DNA of 64,000 nucleotides, taken from Patescibacteria group bacterium. Lineage in GTDB: Bacteria > Patescibacteriota > Patescibacteriia > Magasanikbacterales > GWA2-37-8. The notes under the pieces were generated by a model that did no database searches, had not been told where the DNA came from, and was given only the letters and a program-made list of their open reading frames with translations. The DNA lies in contig SCQK01000013.1 of assembly GCA_004321885.1 (NCBI GenBank), forward strand, positions 64,001-128,000, written 5' to 3'. Made by a program: the position numbers and the translations under genes. This document shows positions 667 through 62,323 of this stretch, piece after piece. The first letter of the stretch is position 1, and each line of letters starts with the position of its first letter.

Positions 667-698
667 ACAAAAAAACAACCCCGACTAAGTCGGGGTTG
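667..698 (-). terminator. Rho-independent terminator downstream of rpsI: hairpin CAACCCCGACTAAGTCGGGGTTG followed by a T-run on the minus strand
   Basis: Perfect GC-rich inverted repeat at 676-698 followed (minus strand) by TTTTTTTGT. Same CCCGACTNAGTCGGG palindrome family seen elsewhere in the window. Confidence 0.6.
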
Positions 699-705
699 TG
701 TCGGA

Positions 706-3406: not shown

Positions 3407-3436
3407 GTCATTCCCCCGACTAAGTCGGGGGAATCC
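3407..3436. repeat. Palindromic element, family A (GTCATTCCCCCGACTAAGTCGGGGGAATCC), intergenic between rpsK and rpsD
   Basis: Outer arms ATTCC/GGAAT enclosing the inner hairpin CCCCCGAC-TAA-GTCGGGGG. Copies at 6030-6060 and 19311-19341 lie in frame in alaS and mnmA. Confidence 0.7.
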
Positions 3437-5349: not shown

Positions 5350-7202
5350 TCTAATATCGCCTTTATCCTCCGCACGCCGGCGCTCACTGCCTCTTCTTTG
5401 ATAATGCGGAATTTTCCCAGCACACCCGTGTGCTCCACGTGCGGTCCGCCGCATATTTCGCGGCTAAAACATTGCGAGTTCTCGTGGGCTTCAACTTTGG
5501 CTTGCGAGTCGCCCACGGAATAGACCTTGACTTTTTGCCCGTAACGTGCTTCAAACAATCCAATGGCCCCCAATTTTTTGGCCTGTTCCACGCTCATTTC
5601 TTCAAAAACCACCGTATAATCGCGCTTTATGGCATAGTTGACAAGTTCTTCAATTTGTGCTTTCTGATTTTCAGTCAGCTTCTCGGGATGGCTAAAATCA
5701 AAGCGCAAACGCTCGGCCGTAATATTGCTGCCGCGCTGTGTCACATGCTCGCCCAACACCTTGCGCAGGGCGGCGTGGAGCAAATGCGTGGCCGTGTGGT
5801 ATTTTATGGACATCTCGCCGGTATCAGCCAGCCCGCCCTTGAATTTTTGCTCGGCGCCGGCCCGAGAAAGCTCCTGATGCTTTTTCATTTCCTCGTTAAA
5901 TCCTTTGATATCAACACTTAATCCTTTTTCCTCCGCCAATTCTATCGTCAGTTCAATCGGGAAGCCATAACTTTGATACAGGTCAAAAGCATCTTTCGCG
6001 GAAATTATTTTTCCGCCGTCAGTCACATTGTCATTCCCCCGACTAAGTACGGGGGAATCCAGTAACTCCTCAAATTTCGCCATTCCTCGTTCAATCGTAT
6101 TCCTAAATTTACTCTCCTCTTTTGCCATTTCGTTTATCACAAACTCGCGGTTGCGTTCCACTTCCGGATAAACATCGCTAAAAATTTTGATTGTTTCCTC
6201 GGCCATGGCCGAGGAAAAATTTTCTTTTATTCCCAGCAGTCGTCCGTGGCGCACGGCGCGGCGAATCAAACGTCTCACCACATACCCCTGGTCCACGTTG
6301 CTTGGCGCTATCCCCTTGTCATCGCCCATGATCATGGTGGCGGTACGCAAATGGTCGGCGATAACGCGCATTGATTTGGTGACTTCCGCGTTTTCCACGT
6401 ATTCGCGCCCGGAAATCTCTTCAATTTTTTGTATCAAAGGCCAAAAAGTGTCCACCTGAAAAACATCGGCAAAGCCGTTTAAGGCGACCAGCGTGCGCTC
6501 CAGACCCATGCCAGTGTCCACGTTCTTTTGTTTGAGGGGCGCGTAACTACCATCAACCAGTTTATTGTACTCCATGAAAACGTCGTTCCAAATTTCCAGC
6601 CAATTGTCTTCGTCGTTTTCCGGGTTGCTCTTTTTGGGTGGAAGCTCAGACTCCCCCATCCAATAAAACATCTCCGTGTCCGGACCGCACGGCCCGGTGG
6701 CTCCGGCCGGCCCCCACCAATTATTTTCTTTCGGTAAAAAACAAATTTTGTGCTCTGGCACGCCCGCTTCTTTCCAAATTTCGGCCGATTCTTCGTCGCG
6801 CTCGGCTGTTTTGCCTCCCTTAAACACGGACACGGCCAATTTCTTCGGGTCCAGCCCCAGCCATTTTTGGTCCGTTAAAAATTCCCAACTCCACTGTATC
6901 GCTTCCTTTTTAAAATAGTCACCCAGCGACCAGTTGCCGAGCATTTCAAAAAAAGTATCGTGGCGGTTGTCCCCCACTTCGTCAATATCCTGCAAGCGCG
7001 CGCATTTTTGCGCGCTGGCCAAACGCTTGCCCTCGGGATGTTTTTCGCCCAGTAAATACGGCACCAGCGGGTGCATGCCGGCGGTGGTAAACAAAACCGT
7101 CGGATCGTTTTCCGGAACGAGCGAGGCCGACAAAATCACCTTGTGTCCTTTACTGACAAAAAAATCCAAATATTTCTGCCGCAGTTGTTTTGATATGAGC
7201 AT
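5346..7202 (-). CDS. alaS: Alanyl-tRNA synthetase, short form lacking the C-terminal C-Ala domain; contains one in-frame palindromic insert
   Basis: Class II catalytic core (FTTAGMHPLVPYLLG, FFEMLGNWSLGDYFK), editing-domain motifs HTATHLLHAALRKVLGEHVTQRGS and CGGPHVEHTG. 618 aa against about 870 typical. Insert LDSPVLSRGND is encoded by the family A element at 6030-6060. Confidence 0.85.
   Translation of the reverse strand: MLISKQLRQKYLDFFVSKGHKVILSASLVPENDPTVLFTTAGMHPLVPYLLGEKHPEGKRLASAQKCARLQDIDEVGDNRHDTFFEMLGNWSLGDYFKKEAIQWSWEFLTDQKWLGLDPKKLAVSVFKGGKTAERDEESAEIWKEAGVPEHKICFLPKENNWWGPAGATGPCGPDTEMFYWMGESELPPKKSNPENDEDNWLEIWNDVFMEYNKLVDGSYAPLKQKNVDTGMGLERTLVALNGFADVFQVDTFWPLIQKIEEISGREYVENAEVTKSMRVIADHLRTATMIMGDDKGIAPSNVDQGYVVRRLIRRAVRHGRLLGIKENFSSAMAEETIKIFSDVYPEVERNREFVINEMAKEESKFRNTIERGMAKFEELLDSPVLSRGNDNVTDGGKIISAKDAFDLYQSYGFPIELTIELAEEKGLSVDIKGFNEEMKKHQELSRAGAEQKFKGGLADTGEMSIKYHTATHLLHAALRKVLGEHVTQRGSNITAERLRFDFSHPEKLTENQKAQIEELVNYAIKRDYTVVFEEMSVEQAKKLGAIGLFEARYGQKVKVYSVGDSQAKVEAHENSQCFSREICGGPHVEHTGVLGKFRIIKEEAVSAGVRRIKAILE
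6030..6060. repeat. Palindromic element, family A, in frame within alaS
   Basis: gtcattcccccgactaagtacgggggaatcc; the reading frame continues through it. Confidence 0.7.
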
Positions 7203-7941: not shown

Positions 7942-9000
7942 CTATTTTTTCTTCAACGTCGTTATCGGCCTACTTTGAGTAATGTATACTGTACCGCTTT
8001 CCATGGCCCATTCAATATCACAAGGGAAACCATAGTGTTGCTCAATTTTCTTGCACACCTTGGCCACTTCAATAATTTCTTTGCCGGTCAGCTTCTGCTT
8101 ACCCCCCTCTTTCTCACTCAACTCAATCCATTTGTTGGAGTCTCTCCCCTTTATAAGGGGAGAGTTAGTGAGGGGTAATTTCGCTTTCACCAACTTCTTC
8201 GTCTGTACTCCAACATTTATATCTACAATACTCATTTCGCTTTTGGAAACAATATAACTGTCGGGTGTAATCTGGCCGCTCACAATCGCTTCGCCCAATC
8301 CAAACCCGGCCTCAATAATCATCTGGTCGGGGTCTTCAGTAACCGGGTGCACAGTAAAGGCGATGCCCGAAATTTCCGACTGCACCATTTTCTGCACCAC
8401 TACCGCGACCGAAACATAATGGTCAATCAGTTTTTTTTCGTGACGATAAAAAATCGCGCGGGGGGTGAAAAGCGAAGACCAGCATTGCTTAACTTTTTCA
8501 ACAACGTTAACGCGCGTGGTGTTCAAATAGGTTTCCAGCTCCCCGGCCCAACTGGCCACGTCGCTGTCCTCGGCCGTAGCGCTGCTTCTCACCGCCACCA
8601 GGTTGTCATCCTGAACTTGTTTCAGGATCCCCGTTCGCCGTCTGTCATTCAGACCCCGCTTAGCGGGGGAGGAATCCCTCCCGCCCAACTCATCAAACGC
8701 CCCCAATATCTCATTCTCCAAATCTTTCGGCATGGGCGTGTCGTGTATCACATCGCGCAAAACATTACTCGCCTTGTCCACGCTGTTGGTGTCTTCGGGA
8801 TCCACGTCAGCCAATCGCGCCTCAATCTCTTCTTTCAATTTCGTTTCCTCAATAAATCTGTCAAACGCGCTCGCCAATACCACAAAACCCGGCGGCACAC
8901 GCAGTTTCGCTTTAGTCATCTCGCCAAGCGAAGCGCCCTTCCCGCCCGCGCTGGCCACATCTTTCTTGGAAATATCCTTAAAAAATTTTATGTGAGGCAT
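7942..9000 (-). CDS. Stand-alone PEP synthase / pyruvate phosphate dikinase N-terminal nucleotide-binding (PPDK_N, ATP-grasp) domain protein; carries three in-frame palindromic inserts
   Basis: VASAGGKGASLGEM, RSSATAEDSDVASWAGELETYLN, AVVVQKMVQSEISGIAFTVHPVT are PPDK_N hallmarks. No phosphohistidine or PEP-binding domain follows. Inserts [32 protein letters not shown] (elements at 8605-8630 and 8644-8680) and NSPLIKGRDSN (8143-8175). Confidence 0.8.
   Translation of the reverse strand: MPHIKFFKDISKKDVASAGGKGASLGEMTKAKLRVPPGFVVLASAFDRFIEETKLKEEIEARLADVDPEDTNSVDKASNVLRDVIHDTPMPKDLENEILGAFDELGGRDSSPAKRGLNDRRRTGILKQVQDDNLVAVRSSATAEDSDVASWAGELETYLNTTRVNVVEKVKQCWSSLFTPRAIFYRHEKKLIDHYVSVAVVVQKMVQSEISGIAFTVHPVTEDPDQMIIEAGFGLGEAIVSGQITPDSYIVSKSEMSIVDINVGVQTKKLVKAKLPLTNSPLIKGRDSNKWIELSEKEGGKQKLTGKEIIEVAKVCKKIEQHYGFPCDIEWAMESGTVYITQSRPITTLKKK
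8143..8175. repeat. Palindromic element, family D (CTCTCCCCTTTATAAGGGGAGAGTTAGTGAGGGG), in frame in the PPDK_N gene
   Basis: Reverse-complement copy at 22373-22405 in the PEP-synthase-like gene, where it encodes SPLYKGRVSEG. Confidence 0.7.
8605..8630. repeat. Palindromic element, family B (GTCATCCTGAACTTGTTTCAGGATCC), in frame in the PPDK_N gene
   Basis: Hairpin ATCCTGAA-CTTGT-TTCAGGAT; further copies at 30589, 31039, 44822, 54761 and inverted variants at 54820 and 55176. Confidence 0.7.
8644..8680. repeat. Palindromic element, family A variant (GTCATTCAGACCCCGCTTAGCGGGGGAGGAATCCCTC), in frame in the PPDK_N gene
   Basis: Similar copy at 43602-43640 in dnaX. Confidence 0.65.
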
Positions 9001-16361: not shown

Positions 16362-17836
16362 ATTTTTCTCACAACCCCACTTGTCGCGTCAACCTTCACC
16401 ATATCGCCGTCTTTGAGTACGGAAGTGATTTTTTTCACGCCCACCACGCAGGGAATTTTAAATTCGCGCGCCACAATGGCCGCATGGCAAGTGATGCCGC
16501 CGTCCTCCGTCACGATAGCCGAGGCGCGTTTCATAGCCGGCAACATCGCCGGATAAGTCGTGAGCGCCAACATAATATCTCCTTTTTCCACCTTATCCGC
16601 GTCTGTTAACGATAGAACAACTTTTACTTTGCCTGAAACAAAACCCGGATACGCGGTGGCGCCCTTAAATCCGTCTTCAACATTTAATTTTATTTCTTCA
16701 ATATCCAAGCCGGCTATAATCGCGTCGGCCTCTTTGCCGTAATAATACTTTGTTCCGCTTTCAGTCGCTTCAATCACGCAATGCTTAATTCTCTCATTTA
16801 TTAAATCAATGTCCAATTTGTCACGCAATAGAGCGTTTTCCATTTCGTCCGTCAAAAAATGATTCGCTTGTTTATGCGATATATTCAATCGCTTGGCAAT
16901 TTCTTTGGTGAGCATGTCCAAAACATAGTGCCCATGCCAAATACAATATTTTCTGAGATCCTTAAGCCAAATAATCTCGCGGGCGATGGCGAACAATCGC
17001 GCGAGCTGCGGGGGCAAGTTGATTTCGGAAATTACTTTATTTTGTTCCGCGATGAGTTTCTCGTAGCGTTCTTTTTCTTCTTTGAGCATTTGGTCCGGGT
17101 CAGTTACGCGAGGCAGGGCTTCCTTAACCTGCTCTTCATAATATTTCAAATCATAAGCCGGCCCGATATAGCCGTATGGCGTCCAGCGCCATTTTTGCCA
17201 ATGCTTTGTTATTAATTCTTTGTACTGGATTCCCGCTTTCGCGGGAATGACAACGGCCTTAAGCAACTCCAAAAAATCCAATTGCTCCAACTGGACAAAA
17301 TTCTGTTTAGCCGGAGTGGTAAGCAGAACAAAATATTCTATTGTTTTTACCGGATCATCTATGCCTAAACTTTTTAAATGTTCTCCTAATTTTTGCTTTA
17401 AATACTCCGAAAAAATCATGCCGTCGCTGTCCACAAACCAAGTGGTGGCGATTGATGGAAGATGACCTTGCTCGGTAAGCCATAAAAGCGTTTTGTAGTA
17501 ATCAAAAAGCTCGGCATTGTTTAGCGCGCCAAAATCTTTTCCCACCAAACTTTGAGCGTAATTAAAATAATCCCAATTTAATTTTTCGGTTCGCGCATGC
17601 AATTCCTCTGCCCACTGCGGCTCGGTAATAATTTTTTCCGCAATCCATTTCACCGTCGTTTCTATTACTTCAACCGGCACATACGCCGTATCCCTGTCGT
17701 TTCTATAATCTTGATACCAAACAGTAAATAATTGTTTGCCATTCTTTTTTGGAATATGCGCAAAAATCCCTTGGGGGTAATAGCCCAGCATGTTAAAATT
17801 CACGTCGCGGATATCAAAATTTATTCGCCATTTCAT
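16358..17836 (-). CDS. Paralog 4: unknown N-terminal domain (about 390 aa) plus C-terminal PEP-utilizing swivel domain
   Basis: ...ATAYPGFVSGKVKVVLSLTDADKVEKGDIMLALTTYPAMLPAMKRASAIVTEDGGITCHAAIVAREFKIPCVVGVKKITSVLKDGDMVKVDATSGVVRKI. Confidence 0.75.
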   Translation of the reverse strand: MKWRINFDIRDVNFNMLGYYPQGIFAHIPKKNGKQLFTVWYQDYRNDRDTAYVPVEVIETTVKWIAEKIITEPQWAEELHARTEKLNWDYFNYAQSLVGKDFGALNNAELFDYYKTLLWLTEQGHLPSIATTWFVDSDGMIFSEYLKQKLGEHLKSLGIDDPVKTIEYFVLLTTPAKQNFVQLEQLDFLELLKAVVIPAKAGIQYKELITKHWQKWRWTPYGYIGPAYDLKYYEEQVKEALPRVTDPDQMLKEEKERYEKLIAEQNKVISEINLPPQLARLFAIAREIIWLKDLRKYCIWHGHYVLDMLTKEIAKRLNISHKQANHFLTDEMENALLRDKLDIDLINERIKHCVIEATESGTKYYYGKEADAIIAGLDIEEIKLNVEDGFKGATAYPGFVSGKVKVVLSLTDADKVEKGDIMLALTTYPAMLPAMKRASAIVTEDGGITCHAAIVAREFKIPCVVGVKKITSVLKDGDMVKVDATSGVVRKI

Positions 17837-19004: not shown

Positions 19005-20186
19005 TCAAGCAATCACTCCCCCGCCCAAACATTCACCTTTAAGATAAAATACCGCGAACTGACCCGGGGTGACGGCGCGTTGGGGGTGAGTGAAAGTAAC
19101 TAAAGGGAGGGAAACAGTGCATCTCTGCAAAGGTTGACGGTGACGCAGGCGCACCTGGCATTTTAGCGGGAAATTGGGTGTGTTTCCACTTATCCAATTT
19201 ACGTCTTTGACCCTTGCTTCCATACTGTACAGCATATCGCTTTTCTCGTCGCCGACAATCAGTTCGTTCTTTTTTATATTCTTACCGACAACAAAGAGAG
19301 GCAACGCGCTGGATTCCCCCGTACTTAGTCGGGGGAATGACAAACTGATACGTTGGCCGATGGTGTAAAACGCCAGGCCATCGTGCTGGCCCACGACTTT
19401 ACCCCTCTCTCGCCACCGCCGCGAGGCGGGGCCCCGCCGTGGCGGTGGCTCTCCCCTTGTAAAGGGGAGAGAGAGCACTATGTTCCCGGGTTTGAATTTT
19501 ATCTTTTTCATCAAAAATTCTTTCATCGGCACTTCGCCGATGAAACAAATGCCCATGCTTTCTTCTTTTTCCGCCGTGGGCAAGCCGAATTTTTTTGCCA
19601 GGGCGCGCACCTGTGGTTTGGCATACTCACCGATGGGAAACAAAACGTGGCGCAGTTGTGCTTGAGATAATTGATTCAAAAAATATGTTTGGTCTTTATT
19701 GAGATCTTTTGACTGCAAGAGGTGCAGAACCCCACCCCCCTTTCGTTCCCCCTTTATTAAGGGAGGAAGAAACGCGTAGTGTCCAGTCGCTAATTTATCA
19801 AACCCTAACGCACGGGCTTTATCCAGCCAGGCGCCAAACTTGATGAATTTATTGCACAAAACATCCGGATTGGGCGTGCGGCCGGCCTTGTACTCGCTAT
19901 ACATGTAATCCAAAACATCGCGCTTGTATTTGCGCGTAAAATCCAGCTTCAAAAGTTTAATGCCCAGTTTGGCGGCCACGCGCAAGGCGTCGCGATAATC
20001 GCCGGTCCAACAGCGCGATCCCACCCCCCCTTCGCCCCCCCCTCTGGCATGAGGGGATATTTTCTCATCATAGTTCACCATGAACGCGCCGCTTACGTTA
20101 TATCCTTGCTTAACCAAAAGAGCGGCGGCAACGGACGAATCCACGCCGCCGGACATGGCGACTAAAATTTTTTGCTTTTTTTTCAT
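19005..20186 (-). CDS. mnmA: tRNA-specific 2-thiouridylase MnmA, carrying four in-frame palindromic-element inserts
   Basis: ILVAMSGGVDSSVAAALLVKQGYNV (PP-loop), GRTPNPDVLCN, NKDQTYFL, GLPTAEKEESMGICFIG. Non-homologous inserts ISPHARGGGEGGVGSR, PPLIKGERKGGGV, LPFTRGEPPPRRGPASRRWRERGKVVG and SLSFPRLSTGESSA map onto elements at 20022-20057, 19736-19776, 19395-19475 and 19311-19341. Confidence 0.85.
   Translation of the reverse strand: MKKKQKILVAMSGGVDSSVAAALLVKQGYNVSGAFMVNYDEKISPHARGGGEGGVGSRCWTGDYRDALRVAAKLGIKLLKLDFTRKYKRDVLDYMYSEYKAGRTPNPDVLCNKFIKFGAWLDKARALGFDKLATGHYAFLPPLIKGERKGGGVLHLLQSKDLNKDQTYFLNQLSQAQLRHVLFPIGEYAKPQVRALAKKFGLPTAEKEESMGICFIGEVPMKEFLMKKIKFKPGNIVLSLPFTRGEPPPRRGPASRRWRERGKVVGQHDGLAFYTIGQRISLSFPRLSTGESSALPLFVVGKNIKKNELIVGDEKSDMLYSMEARVKDVNWISGNTPNFPLKCQVRLRHRQPLQRCTVSLPLVTFTHPQRAVTPGQFAVFYLKGECLGGGVIA
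19311..19341. repeat. Palindromic element, family A (reverse orientation), in frame in mnmA
   Basis: ggattcccccgtacttagtcgggggaatgac is the reverse complement of the alaS copy. Confidence 0.7.
19395..19475. repeat. Compound palindromic element, family D type (…CTCTCCCCTTGTAAAGGGGAGAGAG), in frame in mnmA
   Basis: cccctctctcgccaccgccgcgaggcggggccccgccgtggcggtggctctccccttgtaaaggggagagagag; nested inverted repeats. Confidence 0.6.
19736..19776. repeat. Palindromic element, family D type (CCCCCTTTATTAAGGGAGG), in frame in mnmA
   Basis: ccacccccctttcgttccccctttattaagggaggaag. Confidence 0.55.
20022..20057. repeat. Poly-C/poly-G palindromic element in frame in mnmA
   Basis: cccaccccccccttcgccccccccctctggcatgagggg. 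Confidence 0.5.
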
Positions 20187-20929: not shown

Positions 20930-20984
20930 GGGTCGGTAGTTCAACTGGTTAGAGCATCCCGACTGAGTCGGGAAAGTTGCGGGT
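20930..20984 (+). pseudogene. tRNA-Asp-like 5' fragment with the anticodon arm replaced by the palindrome TCCCGACTGAGTCGGGA, truncated in the T-stem by the GIY-YIG ORF
   Basis: GGGTCGGTAGTTCAACTGGTTAGAGCA is identical to positions 1-26 of the intact tRNA-Asp at 21251. Then the 17-nt palindrome, AAGTTGCGGGT, and the sequence diverges into ATGGAGG (start of the GIY-YIG ORF). Confidence 0.6.
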
Positions 20985-21245
20985 ATGGAGGTAATTTTAT
21001 ATTATATTTACAGTAAAAAACTGAATAAATACTACTTAGGAAAAACCAATGATTTGGAGCGACGTTTTATAGAGCATAATAACGGTGAAGAAATTTTTAC
21101 CAGAACTGGTATTCCATGGAAATTAGTTGGATTTATTAAAGCCAGCGCGAAGATAATTAGTAAATTAGAGTATAAACTAAAAAAAGCAAAAAATCCAAAA
21201 TACGTTTATTGGTATTTCAATCAACACGGAACTGTATTGGAATAA
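20985..21245 (+). CDS. Small GIY-YIG nuclease (COG2827/YhbQ-Slx1-like) nested in the tRNA-Asp locus
   Basis: MEVILYYIYSKKLNKYYLGKTNDLERRFIEHNNGEE... matches GIY-x10-YLG-x-T-NDLERR-x3-H-N of the GIY-YIG (URI) domain; 86 aa. Confidence 0.7.
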   Translation: MEVILYYIYSKKLNKYYLGKTNDLERRFIEHNNGEEIFTRTGIPWKLVGFIKASAKIISKLEYKLKKAKNPKYVYWYFNQHGTVLE

Positions 21246-21250
21246 TGAGC

Positions 21251-21324
21251 GGGTCGGTAGTTCAACTGGTTAGAGCACTGCCCTGTCACGGCAGAAGTTG
21301 CGGGTTCGAGTCCCGTCCGACCCG
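21251..21324 (+). tRNA. tRNA-Asp (anticodon GTC)
   Basis: GGGTCGG-TA-GTTC-AACTGGTTA-GAGC-A-CTGCC-CTGTCAC-GGCAG-AAGTT-GCGGG-TTCGAGT-CCCGT-CCGACCC-G. Cloverleaf with U33, A37, anticodon GUC. Confidence 0.85.
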
Positions 21325-21345
21325 CTTATTATTCCATCAAAGCAA

Positions 21346-21406
21346 GCTGGTTAGAGCATCCCGACTGAGTCGGGAAAGTTGCGGGTTCGAGTCCCGTCCG
21401 ACCCGC
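21346..21406 (+). pseudogene. tRNA-Asp-like 3' fragment (D-loop to 3' end) with a palindrome replacing the anticodon arm
   Basis: AGCTGGTTAGAGCA-TCCCGACTGAGTCGGGA-AAGTT-GCGGGTTCGAGTCCCGTCCGACCCGC; lacks acceptor and D-stem 5' strands. Together with the 20930 fragment it reconstructs one variant tRNA. Confidence 0.6.
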
Positions 21407-21412
21407 ATAAAA

Positions 21413-29990: not shown

Positions 29991-31385
29991 ATGCTACAAC
30001 TTTTCAATACCCTGATCAGAAAAACAGAAGAATTCGTCCCGCTCAAAAAAGGCCGCGCAGGCCTCTACACCTGCGGCCCCACTGTCTACAACTACGCGCA
30101 CATCGGCAATTTGCGCGCTTATGTTTTTGAAGATGTGCTCAAGCGAGTTTTGCTCTACGACAAATACAAGGTGAAGCACGTGATGAATATCACCGACGTT
30201 GGGCATTTGACCGATGACGGCGACGCGGGCGAAGACAAGATGGAAAAAGGGGCGCGACGCGAGGGCAAGACCGCCTGGGAAATCGCGAAATTTTACGAAA
30301 ATGCTTTTAAGAACGACTTGAAAAATTTGAACATTTTGCCGGCCGACAAATATCCGCGCGCCACCGAGCACATCAAAAACCAAATCGCTTTGATAAAAAA
30401 ATTAGAGGCGAAAGGATTTACTTACCGCACGAGCGATGGCGTGTATTTTGACACTTCAAAGTTGTCGGATTACGGCAAGCTGGCGCTTTTGGGCAAACAG
30501 GAATTGATGGCCGGAGCGCGGGTGGAGATGGGAGAAAAAAAACACGCGACTGATTTCGCGCTGTGGAAGTTGAGCGCCTCGCAGGGCGGTCATCCTGAAC
30601 TTGTTTCAGGATCCCCAAAACGCCAAATGGAATGGCCTTCGCCCTGGGGCATCGGTTTTCCTGGCTGGCATATAGAGTGCTCGGCCATGTCAGTAAAATA
30701 TTTGGGCCAGCCGTTTGATATCCACTGCGGCGGAGTTGACCATATTCCGGTGCATCACACCAACGAAATAGCGCAAAGCGAAGCGGCCGGCGGCAAACCC
30801 CTGGCGAATTATTGGTTGCACGGAGAGTTTTTGATAACCGGTACGGAAAAAATGGCCAAATCGGAAAACAACTTTTTGACTTTGGCGAAATTGAAAGAAA
30901 AAGGCATCTCTCCCCTGGCCTATCGTTATTTCCTGTTGCAGACGCATTACCGCAAACAACTGAACTTTTCCTGGGAGGCGCTCTCCGCCGCGCAAAAGGG
31001 CTTGGAGCATTTGTATGACTTAATCCCTGTGTCCAATAGTCATCCTGAACTTGTTTCAGGATCTCCGCTCGCTCAACGATTCCAAGAAGCCATCAACAAC
31101 GACCTGGACACTCCGGCCGCTCTGGCTCTGGTCTGGGATGCCCTGCGCGCCAAAACAATTTCCAAAAAACAACTTTTGGATTTTGACAAGGTTCTCGGTC
31201 TTGGTCTGAACAAAGTGAAAAAAGAAAAAATCAAAATCCCGGCCGAAGTTCAGAAGCTGATCAAGGAGCGCGAAACCGCCCGCACGGCCAAGAACTGGGC
31301 CGAATCCGACCGTTTGCGCCGTGAAATAGAGGCCGCCGGTTTTACGGTTGAAGACACGCCGGATGGGCAGAAGGTGAGGAAATAA
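29991..31385 (+). CDS. cysS: Cysteinyl-tRNA synthetase with two in-frame family B palindromic inserts
   Basis: [21 protein letters not shown] (HIGH), KMAKSENN (KMSKS), anticodon-binding C-terminus; duplicated insert HPELVSGSP at 30589-30614 and 31039-31063. Confidence 0.9.
30589..30614. repeat. Palindromic element, family B, in frame in cysS
   Basis: gtcatcctgaacttgtttcaggatcc. Confidence 0.7.
31039..31063. repeat. Palindromic element, family B, in frame in cysS (second copy)
   Basis: gtcatcctgaacttgtttcaggatc. Confidence 0.7.
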
Positions 31386-42448: not shown

Positions 42449-42475
42449 GTCATTCCGGCCCCCGAGCCGGAATCC
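42449..42475. repeat. Palindromic element, family A variant (GTCATTCCGGCCCCCGAGCCGGAATCC), intergenic before dnaX
   Basis: Read directly; inner hairpin CCGGC-CCCCGA-GCCGG. Confidence 0.6.
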
Positions 42476-42481
42476 AGTAAC

Positions 42482-43987
42482 ATGTCCACCCTCTACCGCC
42501 TCTACCGCCCGCAGAAGTTCGCCGACGTGACGGGCCAAGAGCACATCATCCAAACCATAACCAACGAGATATGCGCCGCTAAAACGGCGCATGCTTATCT
42601 ATTCTCGGGCCCGCGCGGCACCGGCAAGACCACCCTGGCCCGTCTGCTGGCTAAGGCCGTGAACTGCCAAAACCGCAAAGATGGGGAATCTGAACCGTGC
42701 AATGAGTGCCCATCTTGCGCGGAAATTTCCGCCAGCCGCAATATAGACGTAATGGAAATAGACGCGGCCTCGCATACGGGCGTGGAAAATGTGCGCGAAA
42801 ATATCATAGACAGCGCGCAATTTCAGCCCACCAAATCCAAATACAAAATTTTCATCATAGACGAGGTGCACATGCTTTCCACTCCGGCTTTCAACGCCCT
42901 GCTCAAAACCCTGGAAGAGCCGCCGGCGCACGTGATTTTCGTGCTGGCCACCACCGAACTGCAAAAACTGCCGGCTACCATTGTATCGCGCTGTCAACGT
43001 TTTACCTTCAAAAAAATCGGCTTTGACCAGATGATGAGCAAACTTTTGAAAATCTGCAAAGACCAGGACGTAAAGGTGGACAAAAAAGTGCTGGAGCGGG
43101 TGATAAACAAAAGCGACGGCTGTATGCGCGACGCTGAATCCCTGCTTGGTCAAATTTTAACGTTGAATCAAAAAAATATCGGGCCCGAAGACGCGGAAAT
43201 GATTTTGCCCACGTCCAATGCGCGACAGATTTTGAATTTCGTGGATGCAATTTTGAACCGCGACGTTAAAAGCGCCGTGGCTCTGATAAACGAACTGGTT
43301 TCCGACGGCGTGAATCTGGAGCAATTCGCCTATGACGCGCTGGAAATTTTGCGCCTGCTGATGATTTTGCAATACGACCCAACCAAGGAAATTTTGGATT
43401 ACAGCGACGAAGACGCCAAACTGATTAAAAAAATGACCAAACAGGCGCCGGCCGAGCAGATTATAAAATTAACGGACGCGCTGATGGCGCGCCGAGCGCA
43501 AATTAAATCCGCGCCTATTCCCCAGCTGCCCCTGGAGCTCTTCGCCGTGGAATTCTCAAACTGTCATTCCGGACTTGATACGGAATCCATCGCCGCCAAC
43601 TGTCATTCTGAGGCCCCGCTTAGCGGGGACGGAGAATCCCTCTCGCCATCTATCACGCAAAAAATCAAAACCACTCTGGACGAAATTAAAAACAAGTGGC
43701 ACGATATAACTGCCGGCCTCACCGAACAAAATCACTCACTCGGCTTTATCCTGAAAATGGGCGAACCGGCCAGAATGGAAGGAAATGAACTGTATTTGCG
43801 CGTGCCATTTTCCCTGCACAAAGAAAAAATTGAAGAGCAAAAAACCAAAAAATTGATAGAGGGCGCGATGACAGACGCCTTTGGGGAAAAAATTTGCCTG
43901 ATTTGCGAGGTGACGCAGGCGCAAAATGATGATGGCGAAATCACCCAGCTCGCGAGTGAATTTGGGGGTGAAGTTGTCTCACTCTAA
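42482..43987 (+). CDS. dnaX: DNA polymerase III subunit gamma/tau with two in-frame palindromic inserts near the C-terminus
   Basis: GPRGTGKTTLARLLAKAVNC (Walker A), zinc module CNECPSCAEISASRNIDVMEIDAAS, Walker B KIFIIDEVHMLS, sensor SRCQRF; inserts CHSGLDTESIAANCHSEAPLSGDGESLS from elements at 43563-43588 and 43602-43640. Confidence 0.9.
   Translation: MSTLYRLYRPQKFADVTGQEHIIQTITNEICAAKTAHAYLFSGPRGTGKTTLARLLAKAVNCQNRKDGESEPCNECPSCAEISASRNIDVMEIDAASHTGVENVRENIIDSAQFQPTKSKYKIFIIDEVHMLSTPAFNALLKTLEEPPAHVIFVLATTELQKLPATIVSRCQRFTFKKIGFDQMMSKLLKICKDQDVKVDKKVLERVINKSDGCMRDAESLLGQILTLNQKNIGPEDAEMILPTSNARQILNFVDAILNRDVKSAVALINELVSDGVNLEQFAYDALEILRLLMILQYDPTKEILDYSDEDAKLIKKMTKQAPAEQIIKLTDALMARRAQIKSAPIPQLPLELFAVEFSNCHSGLDTESIAANCHSEAPLSGDGESLSPSITQKIKTTLDEIKNKWHDITAGLTEQNHSLGFILKMGEPARMEGNELYLRVPFSLHKEKIEEQKTKKLIEGAMTDAFGEKICLICEVTQAQNDDGEITQLASEFGGEVVSL
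43563..43640. repeat. Two adjacent family A palindromic elements (GTCATTCCGGACTTGATACGGAATCC and GTCATTCTGAGGCCCCGCTTAGCGGGGACGGAGAATCCC) in frame in dnaX
   Basis: Read directly; the ORF remains open through both. Confidence 0.65.
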
Positions 43988-43997
43988 CCATCCCCAC

Positions 43998-44831
43998 ATG
44001 AAAATAATTATAATATCTTTATTACTAATCCTTGCTCCGGTCGCAGTTTCGTCAAAAACTCTAGTCAACCTTAACGTGCCCTTTACTCCGGAAACACCGG
44101 ACAATGTTTGGACAGCGCCCTGGAAAGACGCCTGCGAAGAGGCCAGTATCGTGATGGTCAGCCAATATTATTTAGGCAAACAAAACGCGCTCATACCAAA
44201 AGCGGCCGCCAAGGCGCTGATGCAAAAATATTTTACGATAGAAAACAAAATTTTTGGCTGGAACGCCAACACCGACGCGGCGCATACGGCTAAACTCATA
44301 AACGAGCACTCAAAAATTTTTGCCGCGGAAATAAAAAACAATCCGACGTTGGCAGAAATTAAAGCCGAGGTACAGGCCGGCCGGCCGGTAATTGCCGCCT
44401 TAAACGCTCTTGCGTTGACAAAAATCAACGACCATTTGCGCTTCCGCCGCAACGGCTCGTATTATCACATGCTGGTCATAGTGGGCTATGACGATGAAAC
44501 GAACGAGTTTATCGTGAACGATAACGGCGATTACAGCGGACTTGACCATCGCTACAGTTATGATATTATAATGGACTCTTTGCGCGATTACAGCTACAAA
44601 ACGCACAAGGCGAACGGCCCGGCGCGGGCGTTATTTACTTATCGCAAAATGCTGGCCAAAACCGCGACCAGCAACCGAATTTATTGGATAGAAAAAAATG
44701 TGAAACAATACGTCACCCACCCGGCCGTATTCAAACAACGCGGTTGGAGATGGGCCAACGTGCAGGTGGTGGAAAAAAGTGTGTTGGATGGGTTGACCAG
44801 CGGCACGCCAATCGCGCCATTGTCATCCTGA
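43998..44831 (+). CDS. Secreted peptidase C39-like (papain-fold cysteine peptidase, BtrH-like) protein; the stop codon is supplied by a family B palindromic element
   Basis: Signal peptide MKIIIISLLLILAPVAVSS; CEEASIVMVSQYY (catalytic Cys) and YYHMLVIVGYDDE...VNDNG (His). The ORF ends ...PLSS* where TGA lies inside gtcatccTGA of the element at 44822-44846. Confidence 0.6.
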   Translation: MKIIIISLLLILAPVAVSSKTLVNLNVPFTPETPDNVWTAPWKDACEEASIVMVSQYYLGKQNALIPKAAAKALMQKYFTIENKIFGWNANTDAAHTAKLINEHSKIFAAEIKNNPTLAEIKAEVQAGRPVIAALNALALTKINDHLRFRRNGSYYHMLVIVGYDDETNEFIVNDNGDYSGLDHRYSYDIIMDSLRDYSYKTHKANGPARALFTYRKMLAKTATSNRIYWIEKNVKQYVTHPAVFKQRGWRWANVQVVEKSVLDGLTSGTPIAPLSS

Positions 44832-44846
44832 ATTTATTTCAGGATC
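44822..44846. repeat. Palindromic element, family B variant (GTCATCCTGAATTTATTTCAGGATC)
   Basis: Read directly; provides the peptidase stop codon. Confidence 0.65.
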
Positions 44847-44860
44847 TCCAACCCGTAACC

Positions 44861-44931
44861 TCCGAGGTCGTCTAATGGCAGGACTCGAGACTCTGAATCT
44901 CGATATCTAGGTTCGAATCCTAGCCTCGGAA
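44861..44931 (+). tRNA. tRNA-Gln (anticodon CTG)
   Basis: TCCGAGG-TC-GTC-TAATGGCAG-GAC-T-CGAGA-CTCTGAA-TCTCG-ATAT-CTAGG-TTCGAAT-CCTAG-CCTCGGA-A; anticodon loop CUCUGAA. Confidence 0.75.
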
Positions 44932-44933
44932 CA

Positions 44934-53342: not shown

Positions 53343-53367
53343 GTCATTCCGGGCTTGACCCGGAATC
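53343..53367. repeat. Palindromic element, family A variant (GTCATTCCGGGCTTGACCCGGAATC), downstream of tRNA-Val
   Basis: Read directly. Confidence 0.6.
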
Positions 53368-53387
53368 TATTTCCGTGTGGACGGTGC

Positions 53388-53460
53388 AGGACTCGGACCT
53401 GCGGCCCTTGCGATGTAAACGCAATGCTCTACCAACTGAGCTAACCGTCCGTCCGCATCT
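53388..53460 (-). tRNA. tRNA-Val (anticodon TAC)
   Basis: RC: GGACGGT-TA-GCTC-AGTTGGTA-GAGC-A-TTGCG-TTTACAT-CGCAA-GGGCC-GCAGG-TCCGAGT-CCTGC-ACCGTCC-A. Confidence 0.8.
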
Positions 53461-53505: not shown

Positions 53506-53530
53506 GTCATTCCTGCGCAAGTAGGAATCC
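53506..53530. repeat. Palindromic element, family A variant (GTCATTCCTGCGCAAGTAGGAATCC), upstream of tRNA-Val
   Basis: Read directly. Confidence 0.6.
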
Positions 53531-53537
53531 ACAATCA

Positions 53538-53840
53538 TTACGATTCGTCCAAAATTATCTTTTCTTTGAATCCTCCCCTGTCTTCGGCCTTGGTGGCGCG
53601 TATTTTTTCCAGCTCAACGGCGTCATAACCCTTGAAATCGCGCATGGAATTGAGAACTTCGTAAAGGTCGCCCAAATCATGTGGCGATTCCGAGGAAAAA
53701 AACTCTCCCAGCTCCTCCAGCAGTTTTTCCTTCAACTTTTTCCAGTATTCCTCACTGCCGGCGATATGGTACACCGCCTGTCCGCCTTTGGCTTTGATGA
53801 TTTCGGGAATCTTGTCCCGCACGAGTTTATTGTATTTCAT
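53538..53840 (-). CDS. MazG-like / HisE-like nucleoside-triphosphate pyrophosphohydrolase domain protein
   Basis: MKYNKLVRDKIPEII...EEYWKKLKEKLLEELGEF...DLGDLYEVL pattern of MazG-like all-alpha NTP-PPases (PF12643-like). Confidence 0.55.
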   Translation of the reverse strand: MKYNKLVRDKIPEIIKAKGGQAVYHIAGSEEYWKKLKEKLLEELGEFFSSESPHDLGDLYEVLNSMRDFKGYDAVELEKIRATKAEDRGGFKEKIILDES

Positions 53841-54514: not shown

Positions 54515-54733
54515 TTATTTGTATTTCTTCAACAACTCATCTAATTTTTTCATGATTGGCGCGCGCCAGTCGTCAATCATTTGCGTCCTGATAAATTTTA
54601 CCATTTTTTTGTCTTCCGCCGTCATCTTTTTACTCTCAAGTTCGTAAATTTTTCCCAAAATAAAATAATCTCTATCTTCCTTCAAAACATAACGTTTTTT
54701 GTCAATCGGACGAATTTTTGGTAATTTGTTCAT
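54515..54733 (-). CDS. Small hypothetical protein (72 aa)
   Basis: MNKLPKIRPIDKKRYVLKEDRDYFILGKIYELESKKMTAEDKKMVKFIRTQMIDDWRAPIMKKLDELLKKYK. The track's upstream extension is read through family B elements and is probably not coding. Confidence 0.4.
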   Translation of the reverse strand: MNKLPKIRPIDKKRYVLKEDRDYFILGKIYELESKKMTAEDKKMVKFIRTQMIDDWRAPIMKKLDELLKKYK

Positions 54734-54760: not shown

Positions 54761-54786
54761 GTCATCCTGAACTTGTTTCAGGATCC
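54761..54786. repeat. Palindromic element, family B (GTCATCCTGAACTTGTTTCAGGATCC)
   Basis: Read directly; 30 nt from the inverted-orientation copy at 54820. Confidence 0.7.
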
Positions 54787-54819
54787 CCACTGTCCAATTC
54801 GCCGACTCGCTCGATCGGA

Positions 54820-54844
54820 GATGCCGAAACAAGTTCGGCATGAC
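54820..54844. repeat. Palindromic element, family B, inverted orientation (GATGCCGAAACAAGTTCGGCATGAC); left flank of the GIY-YIG gene
   Basis: Loop ACAAG is the RC of family B CTTGT; stem ATGCCGAA/TTCGGCAT. Confidence 0.65.
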
Positions 54845-54865
54845 AGTGACGCGGCTGGAAACTTA

Positions 54866-55159
54866 TCACTCCCATTCGTCGCTCAAGTCTTTCAAAGTGG
54901 GATTAAGTCCTTTTACTAAATTTATTTTCCACTGACGATGCCAATTTTTGATTTGTTTCTCTCTGTTAATTGCGTCACGTGGATCCAAAAAAACTTCGTA
55001 ATAAACTAACTTTTTCAGATTATACTGTTTTGTAAATCCCTCATTGATTCCATTTTTATGTTCTTCAAGCCGACGTTCTAGATTGTTCGTTATACCTACA
55101 TATAAAACCGTGTTGATGATGTTTGTTAAAATATACACATAAAATGTTTTCCCCTCCAT
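54866..55159 (-). CDS. Small GIY-YIG nuclease (COG2827/YhbQ-Slx1-like), second copy, flanked by family B elements
   Basis: MEGKTFYVYILTNIINTVLYVGITNNLERRLEEHKNG...; GIY-YIG (URI) core; 97 aa. Confidence 0.7.
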   Translation of the reverse strand: MEGKTFYVYILTNIINTVLYVGITNNLERRLEEHKNGINEGFTKQYNLKKLVYYEVFLDPRDAINREKQIKNWHRQWKINLVKGLNPTLKDLSDEWE

Positions 55160-55175
55160 ACGATTTGCGATTGGA

Positions 55176-55200
55176 GATGCTGAAATAAATTCAGCATGAC
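55176..55200. repeat. Palindromic element, family B, inverted orientation (GATGCTGAAATAAATTCAGCATGAC); right flank of the GIY-YIG gene
   Basis: Same orientation as the 54820 copy, so the two form direct repeats around the nuclease ORF. Confidence 0.65.
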
Positions 55201-61451: not shown

Positions 61452-61489
61452 ACAAAAAATCCCCGACTTAGCCGGGAATTTTTTACTTG
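61452..61489 (-). terminator. Hairpin AAATCCCCGACTTAGCCGGGAATTT with flanking A/T runs, downstream of tRNA-Trp
   Basis: Palindrome family E variant; T-run on the minus strand. Confidence 0.45.
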
Positions 61490-61825: not shown

Positions 61826-62046
61826 AAAAGTAGACGAACCTTTTATTTCATACTGTATGGGGACGCGAAAGTGCGGGCGCGCCTAGGCTAACCGAGGCGC
61901 CTCTTTACAAGGAACCGCTGGCTGAAAAACAACCGGTTCGGGGCAAGAGTCCCGAAACAAGCGCTTGGCGCACGGATTGTTTTTCAACCCCAGGTCGGCT
62001 GGGTCTGCCCGCAGTGTAGAGTTAAAAACAGTCCCGACTTAGTCGG
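61826..62046 (+). ncRNA. Candidate small RNA (about 220 nt, GC-rich) between a consensus promoter and a bidirectional terminator
   Basis: Hairpins GGCGCGCC…GGCGCC, GGAACCG…CGGUUC, GGGG…CCCC; ends at ACAGUCCCGACUUAGUCGGGACUGU plus UUUU (62018-62046). Only a 21-codon ORF is present. Class undetermined; the strand call rests on the promoter. Confidence 0.3.
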
Positions 62047-62051
62047 GACTG

Positions 62052-62323
62052 TTTTGGCGCGAGCCGATGAGCGGATTTGAACCGCTGACCACCTCCTTCG
62101 CTTATACTTTATATTGCTATAAAGACTAGACTGTATCTTTGGCTTATCCTTTACCGGACTTAGCCACCCTTGTCAGTCGTTCGCCCGCGATTAGCGGGAC
62201 GGTCTTGTCCCAATTTATTTAGGGATATTAACCGTTATTCGGGATTCACCACGATGTTTCCATCGTGATGGGCGAGGCTTGCGGCTCACCATGGAGGTGC
62301 TCTACCAACTGAGCTACATCGGC
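62052..62323 (-). tRNA. tRNA-Thr (anticodon GGT) interrupted by a 199-nt group I intron in the anticodon loop
   Basis: 5' exon GCCGATG-TA-GCTC-AGTTGGTA-GAGC-A-CCTCC-ATGGT (62288-62323). 3' exon AA-GGAGG-TGGTC-AGCGG-TTCAAAT-CCGCT-CATCGGC-T (62052-62088). Joined anticodon loop AUGGUAA gives GGU. Position equals E. coli thrT in thrU-tyrU-glyT-thrT. Confidence 0.6.
62089..62287 (-). ncRNA. Group I intron (199 nt) in tRNA-Thr(GGU), inserted after U36
   Basis: 5' exon ends in U that can pair with a G in the intron (P1); the intron ends in G. GNRA-capped hairpins (GAGCC-GCAA-GCCUC; CACGAUGG-AAA-CAUCGUG); core-like elements AAUUGGGACAAG (P-like), UAAUCGCGGGCG (Q-like), ACGACUGACA (R-like), AAGAUACAGUCUAGUC (S-like, compare AAGAUAUAGUCC) in canonical order. 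Confidence 0.5.

Follow-up and report, generated by a model that had tools for sequence, protein, structure and literature searches.

Layout of the ssn locus

We describe a small nuclease gene, ssn, and the short hairpin elements that accompany it in a 64,000-nt stretch of DNA from a Patescibacteria group bacterium (GenBank assembly GCA_004321885.1, contig SCQK01000013.1, positions 64,001 to 128,000), referred to here as the window and numbered from its first letter. Each hairpin is oriented, with a GTC tag before the palindrome and an unpaired C, the tail, after it. In minus-strand order, the stop codon of secA is followed after 1 nt by a first hairpin (55200–55176) with its tag pointing outward, and after a further 16 nt by ssn; then come 21 nt, a second hairpin in direct orientation (54844–54820), 34 nt, and a third, inverted hairpin (54761–54785), beyond which lie an orphan open reading frame (ORF) of 72 aa and a NUDIX gene. 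The features of the locus are as follows:

54866–55159, minus strand: ssn, gene for a 97-aa single-domain GIY-YIG nuclease, assigned from Pfam and Neisseria homology
55176–55200, minus strand: upstream hairpin of class B, tGTCATGCTGAATTTATTTCAGCATCtcc, tag away from ssn, 16 nt before the ATG and 1 nt after the secA stop
54820–54844, minus strand: downstream direct hairpin, GTCATGCCGAACTTGTTTCGGCATC, 21 nt past the ssn stop, in the orientation less common for a first downstream copy
54761–54785, plus strand: downstream inverted hairpin, GTCATCCTGAACTTGTTTCAGGATC, 80 nt past ssn, the usual partner of 55176–55200

The initial annotation had placed the 97-aa ORF between same-orientation copies of a degenerate 25-mer, with an opposite-strand copy further out, and this layout was recovered in full: the 25-mer matches exactly at 54820–54844 and 55176–55200 (plus strand), and the outer copy, 34 nt beyond 54820–54844, differs by two compensatory mismatches. 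Folded as DNA, the upstream hairpin reaches −6.8 kcal/mol (z = −4.7) and the direct downstream copy −7.9 kcal/mol. The two downstream hairpins form a tail-to-tail pair with a 34-nt spacer. The outer pair (55176/54761) matches the arrangement typical of homologous loci, described below, and the direct copy at 54820–54844 is unusual; triplets resembling this set also occur in homologous loci L009, L010, L037, L039 and L040. Neither promoter- or terminator-like sites nor a T-run were found at the ssn locus, and ssn is therefore probably read through from secA.

The Ssn protein and its relatives

The 97-aa protein matches the GIY-YIG family PF01541 over residues 6–80 (E = 1.2e-19). This is the only Pfam family above its curated cut-off (T5orf172 stayed below, at 17.6 bits versus 20), which, given the length of 97 aa, marks a single-domain GIY-YIG protein. 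All NCBIfam matches fell below cut-off, including TIGR01453 (26.5 bits, cut-off 56), for which the N-terminal motif alone was aligned; NCBIfam and PADLOC returned no family for this protein, for the second GIY-YIG protein of the window or for the 72-aa neighbour. Pairwise alignment with a Neisseria gene flanked by NTS repeats gave 42% identity over 85 aa (E = 8e-25, 75.9 bits), and tblastn from the window Ssn reached the N. gonorrhoeae gene at E = 3e-15 in a 7.3-Gb database; the SsnA homology threshold applied by Chenal et al. 2025 was tblastn E < 1e-10 (PMC11893778). The N. gonorrhoeae gene is the sole GIY-YIG match in its chromosome and has 11 NTS repeats around it within 3.2 kb. Residues Y9, Y20 and E67 of the window Ssn align with Y6, Y17 and E64 of N. 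meningitidis (Nm) SsnA and are invariant in 26 homologues; mutation of these residues in Nm SsnA abolishes activity (PMC11893778).

The label Slx1/YhbQ-like, given to the protein initially, does not suit it, as the Neisseria ssn gene scores 75.9 bits against 22.9 bits for UPF0213. Matches among solved structures were weak and contained no Ssn structure, the best being the UPF0213 proteins 1zg2 (22.9 bits, E = 7e-4) and 1ywl (E = 0.012), a degree of similarity that would fit a distinct subfamily. To our knowledge, neither UPF0213/YhbQ nor Slx1 nucleases have been reported to accompany tagged hairpin repeats; what they have in common with Ssn is a GIY-YIG fold and a small size.

Homologues of the window Ssn are numerous (>8000 matches), the nearest at 70% identity, and the closest relatives are scattered over many phyla at merely 50–70% identity; only two matches came from phages, both weak. 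The G+C content of ssn is ~32%, and that of ssn plus the 72-aa ORF ~32–35%, compared with ~52% in the surrounding genes, which suggests recent acquisition.

Tagged hairpins across the window

In addition to its two exact matches, the 25-mer occurs in reverse orientation with two mismatches at 54761–54785, 8605, 30589, 31039 and 44822, giving seven matches in the window versus 0.00 across 100 shuffles. Base changes on one side of the stem are compensated on the other (CCT/AGG, GCC/GGC and GCT/AGC), and these class-B copies fold as single-stranded DNA with −6 to −8 kcal/mol (z about −3 to −5). Read on the GTCAT strand, a class-B copy consists of GTC, an arm of AT plus 6 nt, a 5-nt loop, the complementary arm plus AT, and C.

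A structural finder (GTCAT, a 4–9-nt stem, a 3–8-nt loop, the complementary arm, then ATC), with its bias controlled by freeing stem positions and by dropping the tag requirement, returned 15 elements in the window, compared with 0.35 ± 0.57 in dinucleotide-preserving shuffles. When the tag was no longer required, GTC still preceded 13 of the 14 perfect hairpins with an AT-stem and a final C; the tag is thus a real, non-palindromic part of the element. The shared layout comprises the GTC tag, an 8-bp stem starting with AT, a 5-nt loop and the tail C, with T or C before GTC in 96 of 115 unique copies and T or C after the tail C. Beyond the seven class-B copies, we distinguished GTCATTCCCCCGACTAAGT(A)CGGGGGAATC (three copies), the GTCATTCCGG...CCGGAATC types and a single GTCATTCCCGCGAAAGCGGGAATCcag (17228–17251). 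The window holds at least four hairpin classes and one ssn gene.

Association of ssn with hairpins in homologous loci

The same finder was applied to 80 homologous genome loci with 50–63% identity to the window Ssn, sampled from Bacteroidota, Ignavibacteria, Patescibacteria, Melainabacteria, Gammaproteobacteria, Campylobacterota, Chloroflexota, Elusimicrobiota and other groups. Within 100 nt upstream of ssn we counted 41 hairpins, 33 of them with the tag pointing outward, and within 100 nt downstream 36, of which 31 were inverted; the rest of these loci (~730 kb) contained 69. Hairpin density is ~4.8 per kb up to 100 nt from the gene versus ~0.09 per kb elsewhere, and this ~50-fold enrichment bears out the gene–hairpin association that had been proposed from the window alone.

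A copy lies within 200 nt of the gene in 50 of the 80 loci, and on both sides in 26. The usual arrangement is an inverted pair with tags outward, the upstream copy 7–30 nt before the ATG and the downstream copy 0–20 nt past the stop codon or overlapping it. Where it overlaps, the TGA of the hairpin serves as the stop codon of the homologue: many homologues end in DPETSSG-stop or DAETSSA-stop, the translated hairpin including its TGA. Of the 48 loci that have flanking hairpins, 40 share the window's class-B motif. Once stem positions 6/22 and 8/20 were freed, all 96 copies were Watson–Crick paired at these positions (four and two pair types, respectively), while the loop and the GAA/TTC segment of the stem did not vary, which indicates selection on particular bases as well as on the hairpin.

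Reciprocally, the exact class-B 25-mer is present in at least 120 metagenome stretches; of 80 that were checked, 7 carried an ssn homologue in their flanks, always within 1 kb of the hairpin. The correspondence between protein sub-clade and hairpin class gave a very weak signal (57% within a class versus 55% between classes). Overall, the data support that ssn and tagged hairpins belong together across phyla, with a preferred orientation and spacing.

As a separate observation, two predicted viral contigs (IMGVR_UViG_3300010223_000008, loci L217 and L220; IMGVR_UViG_3300028845_000195, locus L218) have tagged hairpins of mixed classes, about one per kb, and on each contig all 15 point the same way. 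The fetched parts of the two contigs contained no ssn homologue. A bias this strict would suit a process that works on only one of the strands in single-stranded form.

A probable Ssn/SRM module in Patescibacteria

The locus is, with high probability, an Ssn/SRM module, that is, an Ssn-family GIY-YIG endonuclease together with its cognate hairpins, known as Ssn-related motifs (SRMs) or CGTC-tagged repetitive extragenic palindromes (REPs). Homology favours this assignment, as do the conserved catalytic residues and the conservation of the tag and the tail C; it would make the locus a new example, in a new host group, of a system published in 2025. Chenal et al. (Nat Commun) reported that half of the Neisseria dRS3 repeats are a longer oriented element, NTS (CGTCATTCCCGCGMAVGCGGGAATCYRG), and that Nm SsnA, a 94-aa single-domain GIY-YIG protein, binds NTS as single-stranded DNA only and cuts a few nt upstream (PMC11893778). 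Binding depends critically on the C that follows the palindrome, and cutting on the three bases that precede it; Nm SsnA neither cuts duplex DNA nor binds the RNA form, and activity is lost when the palindrome sequence is changed with the hairpin structure kept (PMC11893778). In single-stranded DNA, the purified Neisseria and Wolbachia homologues bind their own hairpins and cut beside them, and ssnA homologues across bacteria have flanking SRMs on at least one side in 71% of cases and on both sides in 42% (PMC11893778). In N. meningitidis, SsnA lowers the integration of NTS-bearing transforming DNA, and this restriction of incoming single-stranded DNA is the only biological role shown (PMC11893778).

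The window resembles the Neisseria system in its ~95-aa single-domain GIY-YIG protein and its oriented, dispersed, GTC-tagged hairpins, one of which (17228) is identical to the NTS core; the tag, AT-stem, 4–5-nt loop and tail C match the descriptions of both NTS and CGTC REPs. It differs in its host, Patescibacteria (Magasanikbacteria-like), a group unmentioned in the main text of Chenal et al. 2025, and in its class-B motif, whose NCYGAA stem and YTYRW loop fall outside the published SRM pattern. That pattern, HGTCWYN(0-2)YYVSBRHN(0-5)WNVSBRGN(0-2)RNCYNB, matches the window at 6029, 17225 and 19309 only and misses all seven class-B copies. It serves for searching and does not define an SRM; the window elements do have the layout of tag, AT-stem and tail C. 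As it misses class B (GTCAT-NCYGAA-YTYRW-TTCRGN-ATC), the published counts of SRM-associated genes are probably underestimates.

All 15 window elements also have the anatomy of CGTC-tagged REPs (tag, AT-stem, loop, unpaired tail), described by Di Nocera et al. 2013 (BMC Genomics) with a tag that is often TGTC, 8–9-bp AT-stems, 4–5-nt loops and a CCA tail (PMC3733652). The same authors equated these REPs with Neisseria dRS3 and with Rickettsia palindromic elements (RPEs) 4 and 6, and noted that some copies are intragenic and that the family comes without a dedicated transposase (PMC3733652). The likeness to the window extends to the short unpaired tail (CCA/CCC), several classes per genome, pairs and intragenic copies; the 2013 study, however, covered five phyla, mostly Alphaproteobacteria, whereas the host here belongs to Patescibacteria and a partner gene is adjacent.

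RPEs were reportedly described by Ogata et al. in 2000 as selfish DNA inserted in-frame in protein-coding genes. Like them, the window hairpins are short palindromic repeats that lie in-frame in housekeeping genes and add short peptides non-destructively, but classical RPEs are longer (about 100–150 bp), only RPE-4 and RPE-6 have been equated with CGTC REPs, and the RPE work made no link to Ssn. A further comparison is with REPs and their REP-associated tyrosine transposases (RAYTs), together known as REPtrons, and with TnpA of the IS200/IS605 insertion sequences, in which a small gene is likewise flanked by dispersed hairpins that its product recognises as single-stranded DNA. Those systems use an HUH (Y1) tyrosine transposase and, in REPtrons, GTAG tags, whereas the window unit has a hydrolytic GIY-YIG nuclease and (C)GTC tags, with no covalent intermediate and no demonstrated transposition for Ssn; the window unit is consequently not a REPtron.

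This assignment extends the Ssn/SRM system to Patescibacteria and shows that the class-B hairpin accompanies this protein clade across many phyla. It gives a name and a biochemically tested precedent to a gene annotated only as "GIY-YIG nuclease family protein", and it places repeats that would otherwise seem a private oddity of this genome within a known kind. A new pair of enzyme and motif could also bring a new specificity to the tools for cutting single-stranded DNA that were suggested in 2025 (PMC11893778).

Copies inside genes and turnover in cysS

Seven of the 15 window elements (47%) lie in-frame in housekeeping genes, namely alaS, cysS (twice), dnaX, mnmA and two genes with PEP-utilising-enzyme domains. 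This share is unusually high, the intragenic fraction being 12–13% in the other fetched loci and 2% in N. meningitidis (PMC11893778). The intragenic copies are:

30589–30613, plus strand: class-B hairpin in cysS, in-frame, adding ~10 residues; site empty in the closest orthologue
31039–31063, plus strand: second class-B hairpin in cysS, in-frame, its sequence seen here alone among the 45 closest orthologues listed
8605–8629, plus strand: class-B hairpin in the PPDK_N-domain gene, in-frame, antisense, encoding GILKQVQDD
17228–17251, minus strand: hairpin identical to the Neisseria NTS core, GTCATTCCCGCGAAAGCGGGAATCcag, in-frame in a PEP-utilising-enzyme-domain gene
6030–6059, plus strand: hairpin GTCATTCCCCCGACTAAGTACGGGGGAATC in alaS, in-frame, at an 8-residue insertion relative to a solved AlaRS structure
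19312–19341, minus strand: hairpin in mnmA, in-frame, with the sequence seen at 6030
43563–43587, plus strand: hairpin GTCATTCCGGACTTGATACGGAATC in dnaX, in-frame, with one stem mismatch

The insertion of the class-B element into cysS and the PPDK_N gene, already noted in the initial annotation, was found again and in-frame in all three copies. Both cysS copies encode HPELVSGSP, and alignments to solved structures place insertions at the hairpins, of 10 residues in CysS and 8 in AlaRS. In the closest CysS orthologue (L207, 77% identity) the 30589 site is empty and 30 nt shorter, and a separate hairpin lies near the 5' end of its cysS; the next orthologue (L206, 73%) has the hairpin at this site with a decayed tag, and in more distant ones this loop holds longer inserts or different peptides encoded by hairpins. 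A target-site duplication or exact boundary could not be defined in cysS, the orthologues being too diverged (77% amino acid identity). The comparison indicates that hairpins appear and disappear as genomes diverge at genus level; the elements are therefore mobile, which says nothing on what moves them.

The CysS loop after DFALWK(F/L)S (window 30560–30625) is an insertion hot spot, as seen in orthologues P0135, P0142, P0147 and P0168: it contains nothing, a class-B hairpin peptide, or inserts of up to ~60 residues with other repeat-like peptides such as TVIPTTKEES.

Proposed mechanism and alternative explanations

Extrapolating from the characterised homologues, we infer that the window protein is an enzymatically active Ssn. 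When DNA becomes single-stranded during replication, repair, uptake or one-strand transfer, the element would fold into its 8-bp hairpin; Ssn would then bind the folded hairpin, with the C just after the palindrome required, and cut the hairpin-bearing strand a few nt 5' of the GTC tag, while being inactive on duplex DNA, RNA and the complementary strand. The most likely role would be strand-specific cutting of motif-bearing single-stranded DNA, as in the restriction of transforming DNA in Neisseria, and the selfish spread of the hairpins may be a by-product of this activity or depend on it.

Several points weigh against reading the locus as an Ssn/SRM module of this kind. Both the activity of this particular protein and its recognition of class B are argued from homologues. 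The published enzyme needs the palindrome sequence and not just the structure, so with at least four hairpin classes in the window one Ssn may not serve them all. The N. gonorrhoeae comparison gene is taken to be the ssnA orthologue on account of its NTS context and single match, and membership of the window protein in CDD family cd10448 is putative. Moreover, tags point inward at the Neisseria locus but outward in the window, and class B, which the published pattern passes over, may have gone uncounted in Chenal et al. 2025.

A possible, though doubtful, extension, which would add to the Ssn/SRM reading, is that hairpin–ssn–hairpin forms an autonomous mobile element, with Ssn excising and inserting both itself and the solo hairpins. 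The architecture resembles that of an insertion sequence, with inverted flanking hairpins in most homologous loci; ssn is foreign in composition, with relatives scattered over phyla; and the cysS site is empty in L207 and filled in the window and L206, L207 having an insertion of its own elsewhere. Di Nocera et al. 2013 remarked that CGTC REPs come without a transposase of their own (PMC3733652), and no other candidate enzyme is at hand. The initial annotation had drawn the parallel with REPs and RAYTs, and the same hypothesis of Ssn as mobiliser, with the REP/RAYT and IS200/IS605 parallel, is raised in the Discussion of Chenal et al. 2025 (PMC11893778). On the other side, the demonstrated Neisseria phenotype is restriction of transforming DNA and not mobility, and no transposition, mobilisation or homing by Ssn has been reported. 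GIY-YIG nucleases cut hydrolytically, without a covalent DNA intermediate, and such chemistry cannot rejoin cut DNA, so host factors would be needed. The window also has one ssn gene for several hairpin classes, and sequence divergence kept any target-site duplication or insertion boundary from being defined.

A more specific form of this idea, to which we give rather low credence, holds that Ssn/SRM in Patescibacteria is an active mobile system that inserts 24–30-nt hairpins in-frame into essential genes at recurrent sites, for instance one CysS loop that is hit in several lineages, with Ssn as its sole encoded protein. If true, Ssn would be the missing enzyme behind the "selfish DNA in protein-coding genes" of the RPE and CGTC-REP type, by a transposition route unlike those of HUH, DDE or recombinase enzymes. 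The in-frame copies in essential genes and the filled and empty cysS sites are material for deciding whether Ssn moves hairpins.

It is improbable that ssn is a free-standing homing-endonuclease gene whose product cuts at hairpin pairs, with repair then copying the gene into them. Such homing would account for the position of ssn, nearly always between two hairpins, and gene-free pairs with 24–34-nt spacers do exist, in the window (54761/54820) and in metagenome loci L086, L098, L104 and L107; GIY-YIG homing endonucleases are, moreover, well known. Homing nevertheless needs a duplex break, and characterised Ssn enzymes do not cut duplex DNA; the 97 aa hold one domain, with no separate DNA-binding domain like that of I-TevI-type enzymes, whose genes usually lie in introns or stand alone in phages; and there is one ssn gene in 64 kb despite 15 potential targets.

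Still less probable is that the hairpins act at the RNA level, as terminators, processing sites or stabilisers, and that their position beside ssn is gene-end punctuation. Copies do lie right after stop codons (1 nt past secA, 2 nt past the ORF ending at 42447) and beside tRNA genes, and REPs elsewhere affect mRNA 3' ends (PMC3733652). Against this, there is no T-run or terminator-like site, and Rfam searches (at gathering thresholds over the window, and by E-value around both GIY-YIG genes) returned tRNAs and chance-level matches only. The tag is conserved yet non-palindromic, the elements occur in both orientations relative to transcription, about half of the copies are inside coding sequence, and Nm SsnA does not bind the RNA form (PMC11893778). 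An enrichment of ~50-fold around one gene family across phyla would also be unexpected for generic punctuation.

Hardly credible, finally, is a generic structure-specific repair nuclease of the YhbQ/UPF0213 or Slx1 type without any sequence tie to the repeats, since, although 1zg2 and 1ywl are its best solved-structure matches, both are weak (E = 7e-4 and 0.012) against E = 8e-25 for the NTS-flanked Neisseria gene, and the hairpin association is strong and position-specific.

A second GIY-YIG gene beside tRNA-Asp

The window has another GIY-YIG gene:

20985–21245: ORF of 86 aa, PF01541 E = 1e-9

Its product has the N-terminal motif alone in common with Ssn, and one homologue among 5.8 billion proteins, in Magasanikbacteria. 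Within 20931–21408 the order is a 5' tRNA-like fragment, the 86-aa gene, an intact tRNA-Asp(GTC) at 21251–21325, and a 3' tRNA-like fragment. The initial annotation regarded this gene as a parallel case bracketed by hairpins. Bracketed it is, by CCCGACTGAGTCGGG at 20957–20973 and 21359–21375, but these hairpins lie inside a ~40-nt direct repeat derived from tRNA-Asp, where they replace the anticodon arms of the tRNA-like fragments, and they have no GTC tag, so the parallel with ssn falls away. There is no tagged hairpin within 1.5 kb of the gene, and Rfam returned nothing beyond tRNA for 20931–21408. In the Magasanikbacteria homologue (L081, 2380–3045), the GIY-YIG gene is likewise followed by tRNA-Asp, in a longer stretch with tRNA acceptor-stem-like ends. 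The locus has the look of a tRNA-Asp gene into which an element has inserted, bringing a replacement tRNA with it. As an Ssn unit, this gene was rejected for its link to tRNA-Asp, its sharing of only the N-terminal motif and the lack of a tagged hairpin nearby.

Other elements and neighbouring features

The remaining hairpins of the window are:

44822–44846, plus strand: class-B hairpin with an ATAAA-type loop, between the 3' end of a peptidase C39-like ORF and tRNA-Gln (44861)
3407–3435, plus strand: intergenic hairpin GTCATTCCCCCGACTAAGTCGGGGGAATC
42449–42474, plus strand: intergenic hairpin GTCATTCCGGCCCCCGAGCCGGAATC, 2 nt past the stop of an ORF with type IV secretion coupling-protein domains
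53343–53367, plus strand: intergenic hairpin GTCATTCCGGGCTTGACCCGGAATC, between a secD-like gene and tRNA-Val
53506–53529, plus strand: hairpin GTCATTCCTGCGCAAGTAGGAATC, one stem mismatch, just downstream of a 100-aa gene (53538–53840, minus strand)

Tagged hairpins lie 14 nt before tRNA-Gln (44822–44932) and 9 nt from the end of tRNA-Val (53343–53450), and a palindromic element is directly beside three of the five tRNA genes of the window (tRNA-Gln, tRNA-Val and tRNA-Asp). A palindrome core, CCGACTNAGTCGG, has six copies in the window (675–699, 61463–61475, 62025–62055, 3416, 20959 and 21361) against 0.09 expected; one is the centre of the tagged hairpin 3407–3435 and two are in the tRNA-like fragments, while the remaining copies (ACAACCCCGACTAAGTCGGGGTTGT and AAAACAGTCCCGACTTAGTCGGGACTGTTTT) lack the GTC tag.

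The 72-aa ORF (54518–54733, minus strand; MNKLPKIRPIDKK..., ~33% G+C), just outside the inverted hairpin pair, had no significant Pfam, NCBIfam or PADLOC match. It was rejected as a conserved partner of ssn, as tblastn recovered no homologue in L001–L085 (the 80 genome loci and L081–L085), though the two may have been acquired at the same time.

The plasmid collection that was searched includes two N. gonorrhoeae chromosomes of 2.17 Mb, filed there as plasmids. At gonococcal locus L085 (NZ_CP119142.1, 1880219–1883473), the ATG of the NTS-flanked GIY-YIG gene (L085 position 1494) is out of frame with the rest of the gene (from 1498); this copy may be frameshifted or start elsewhere.

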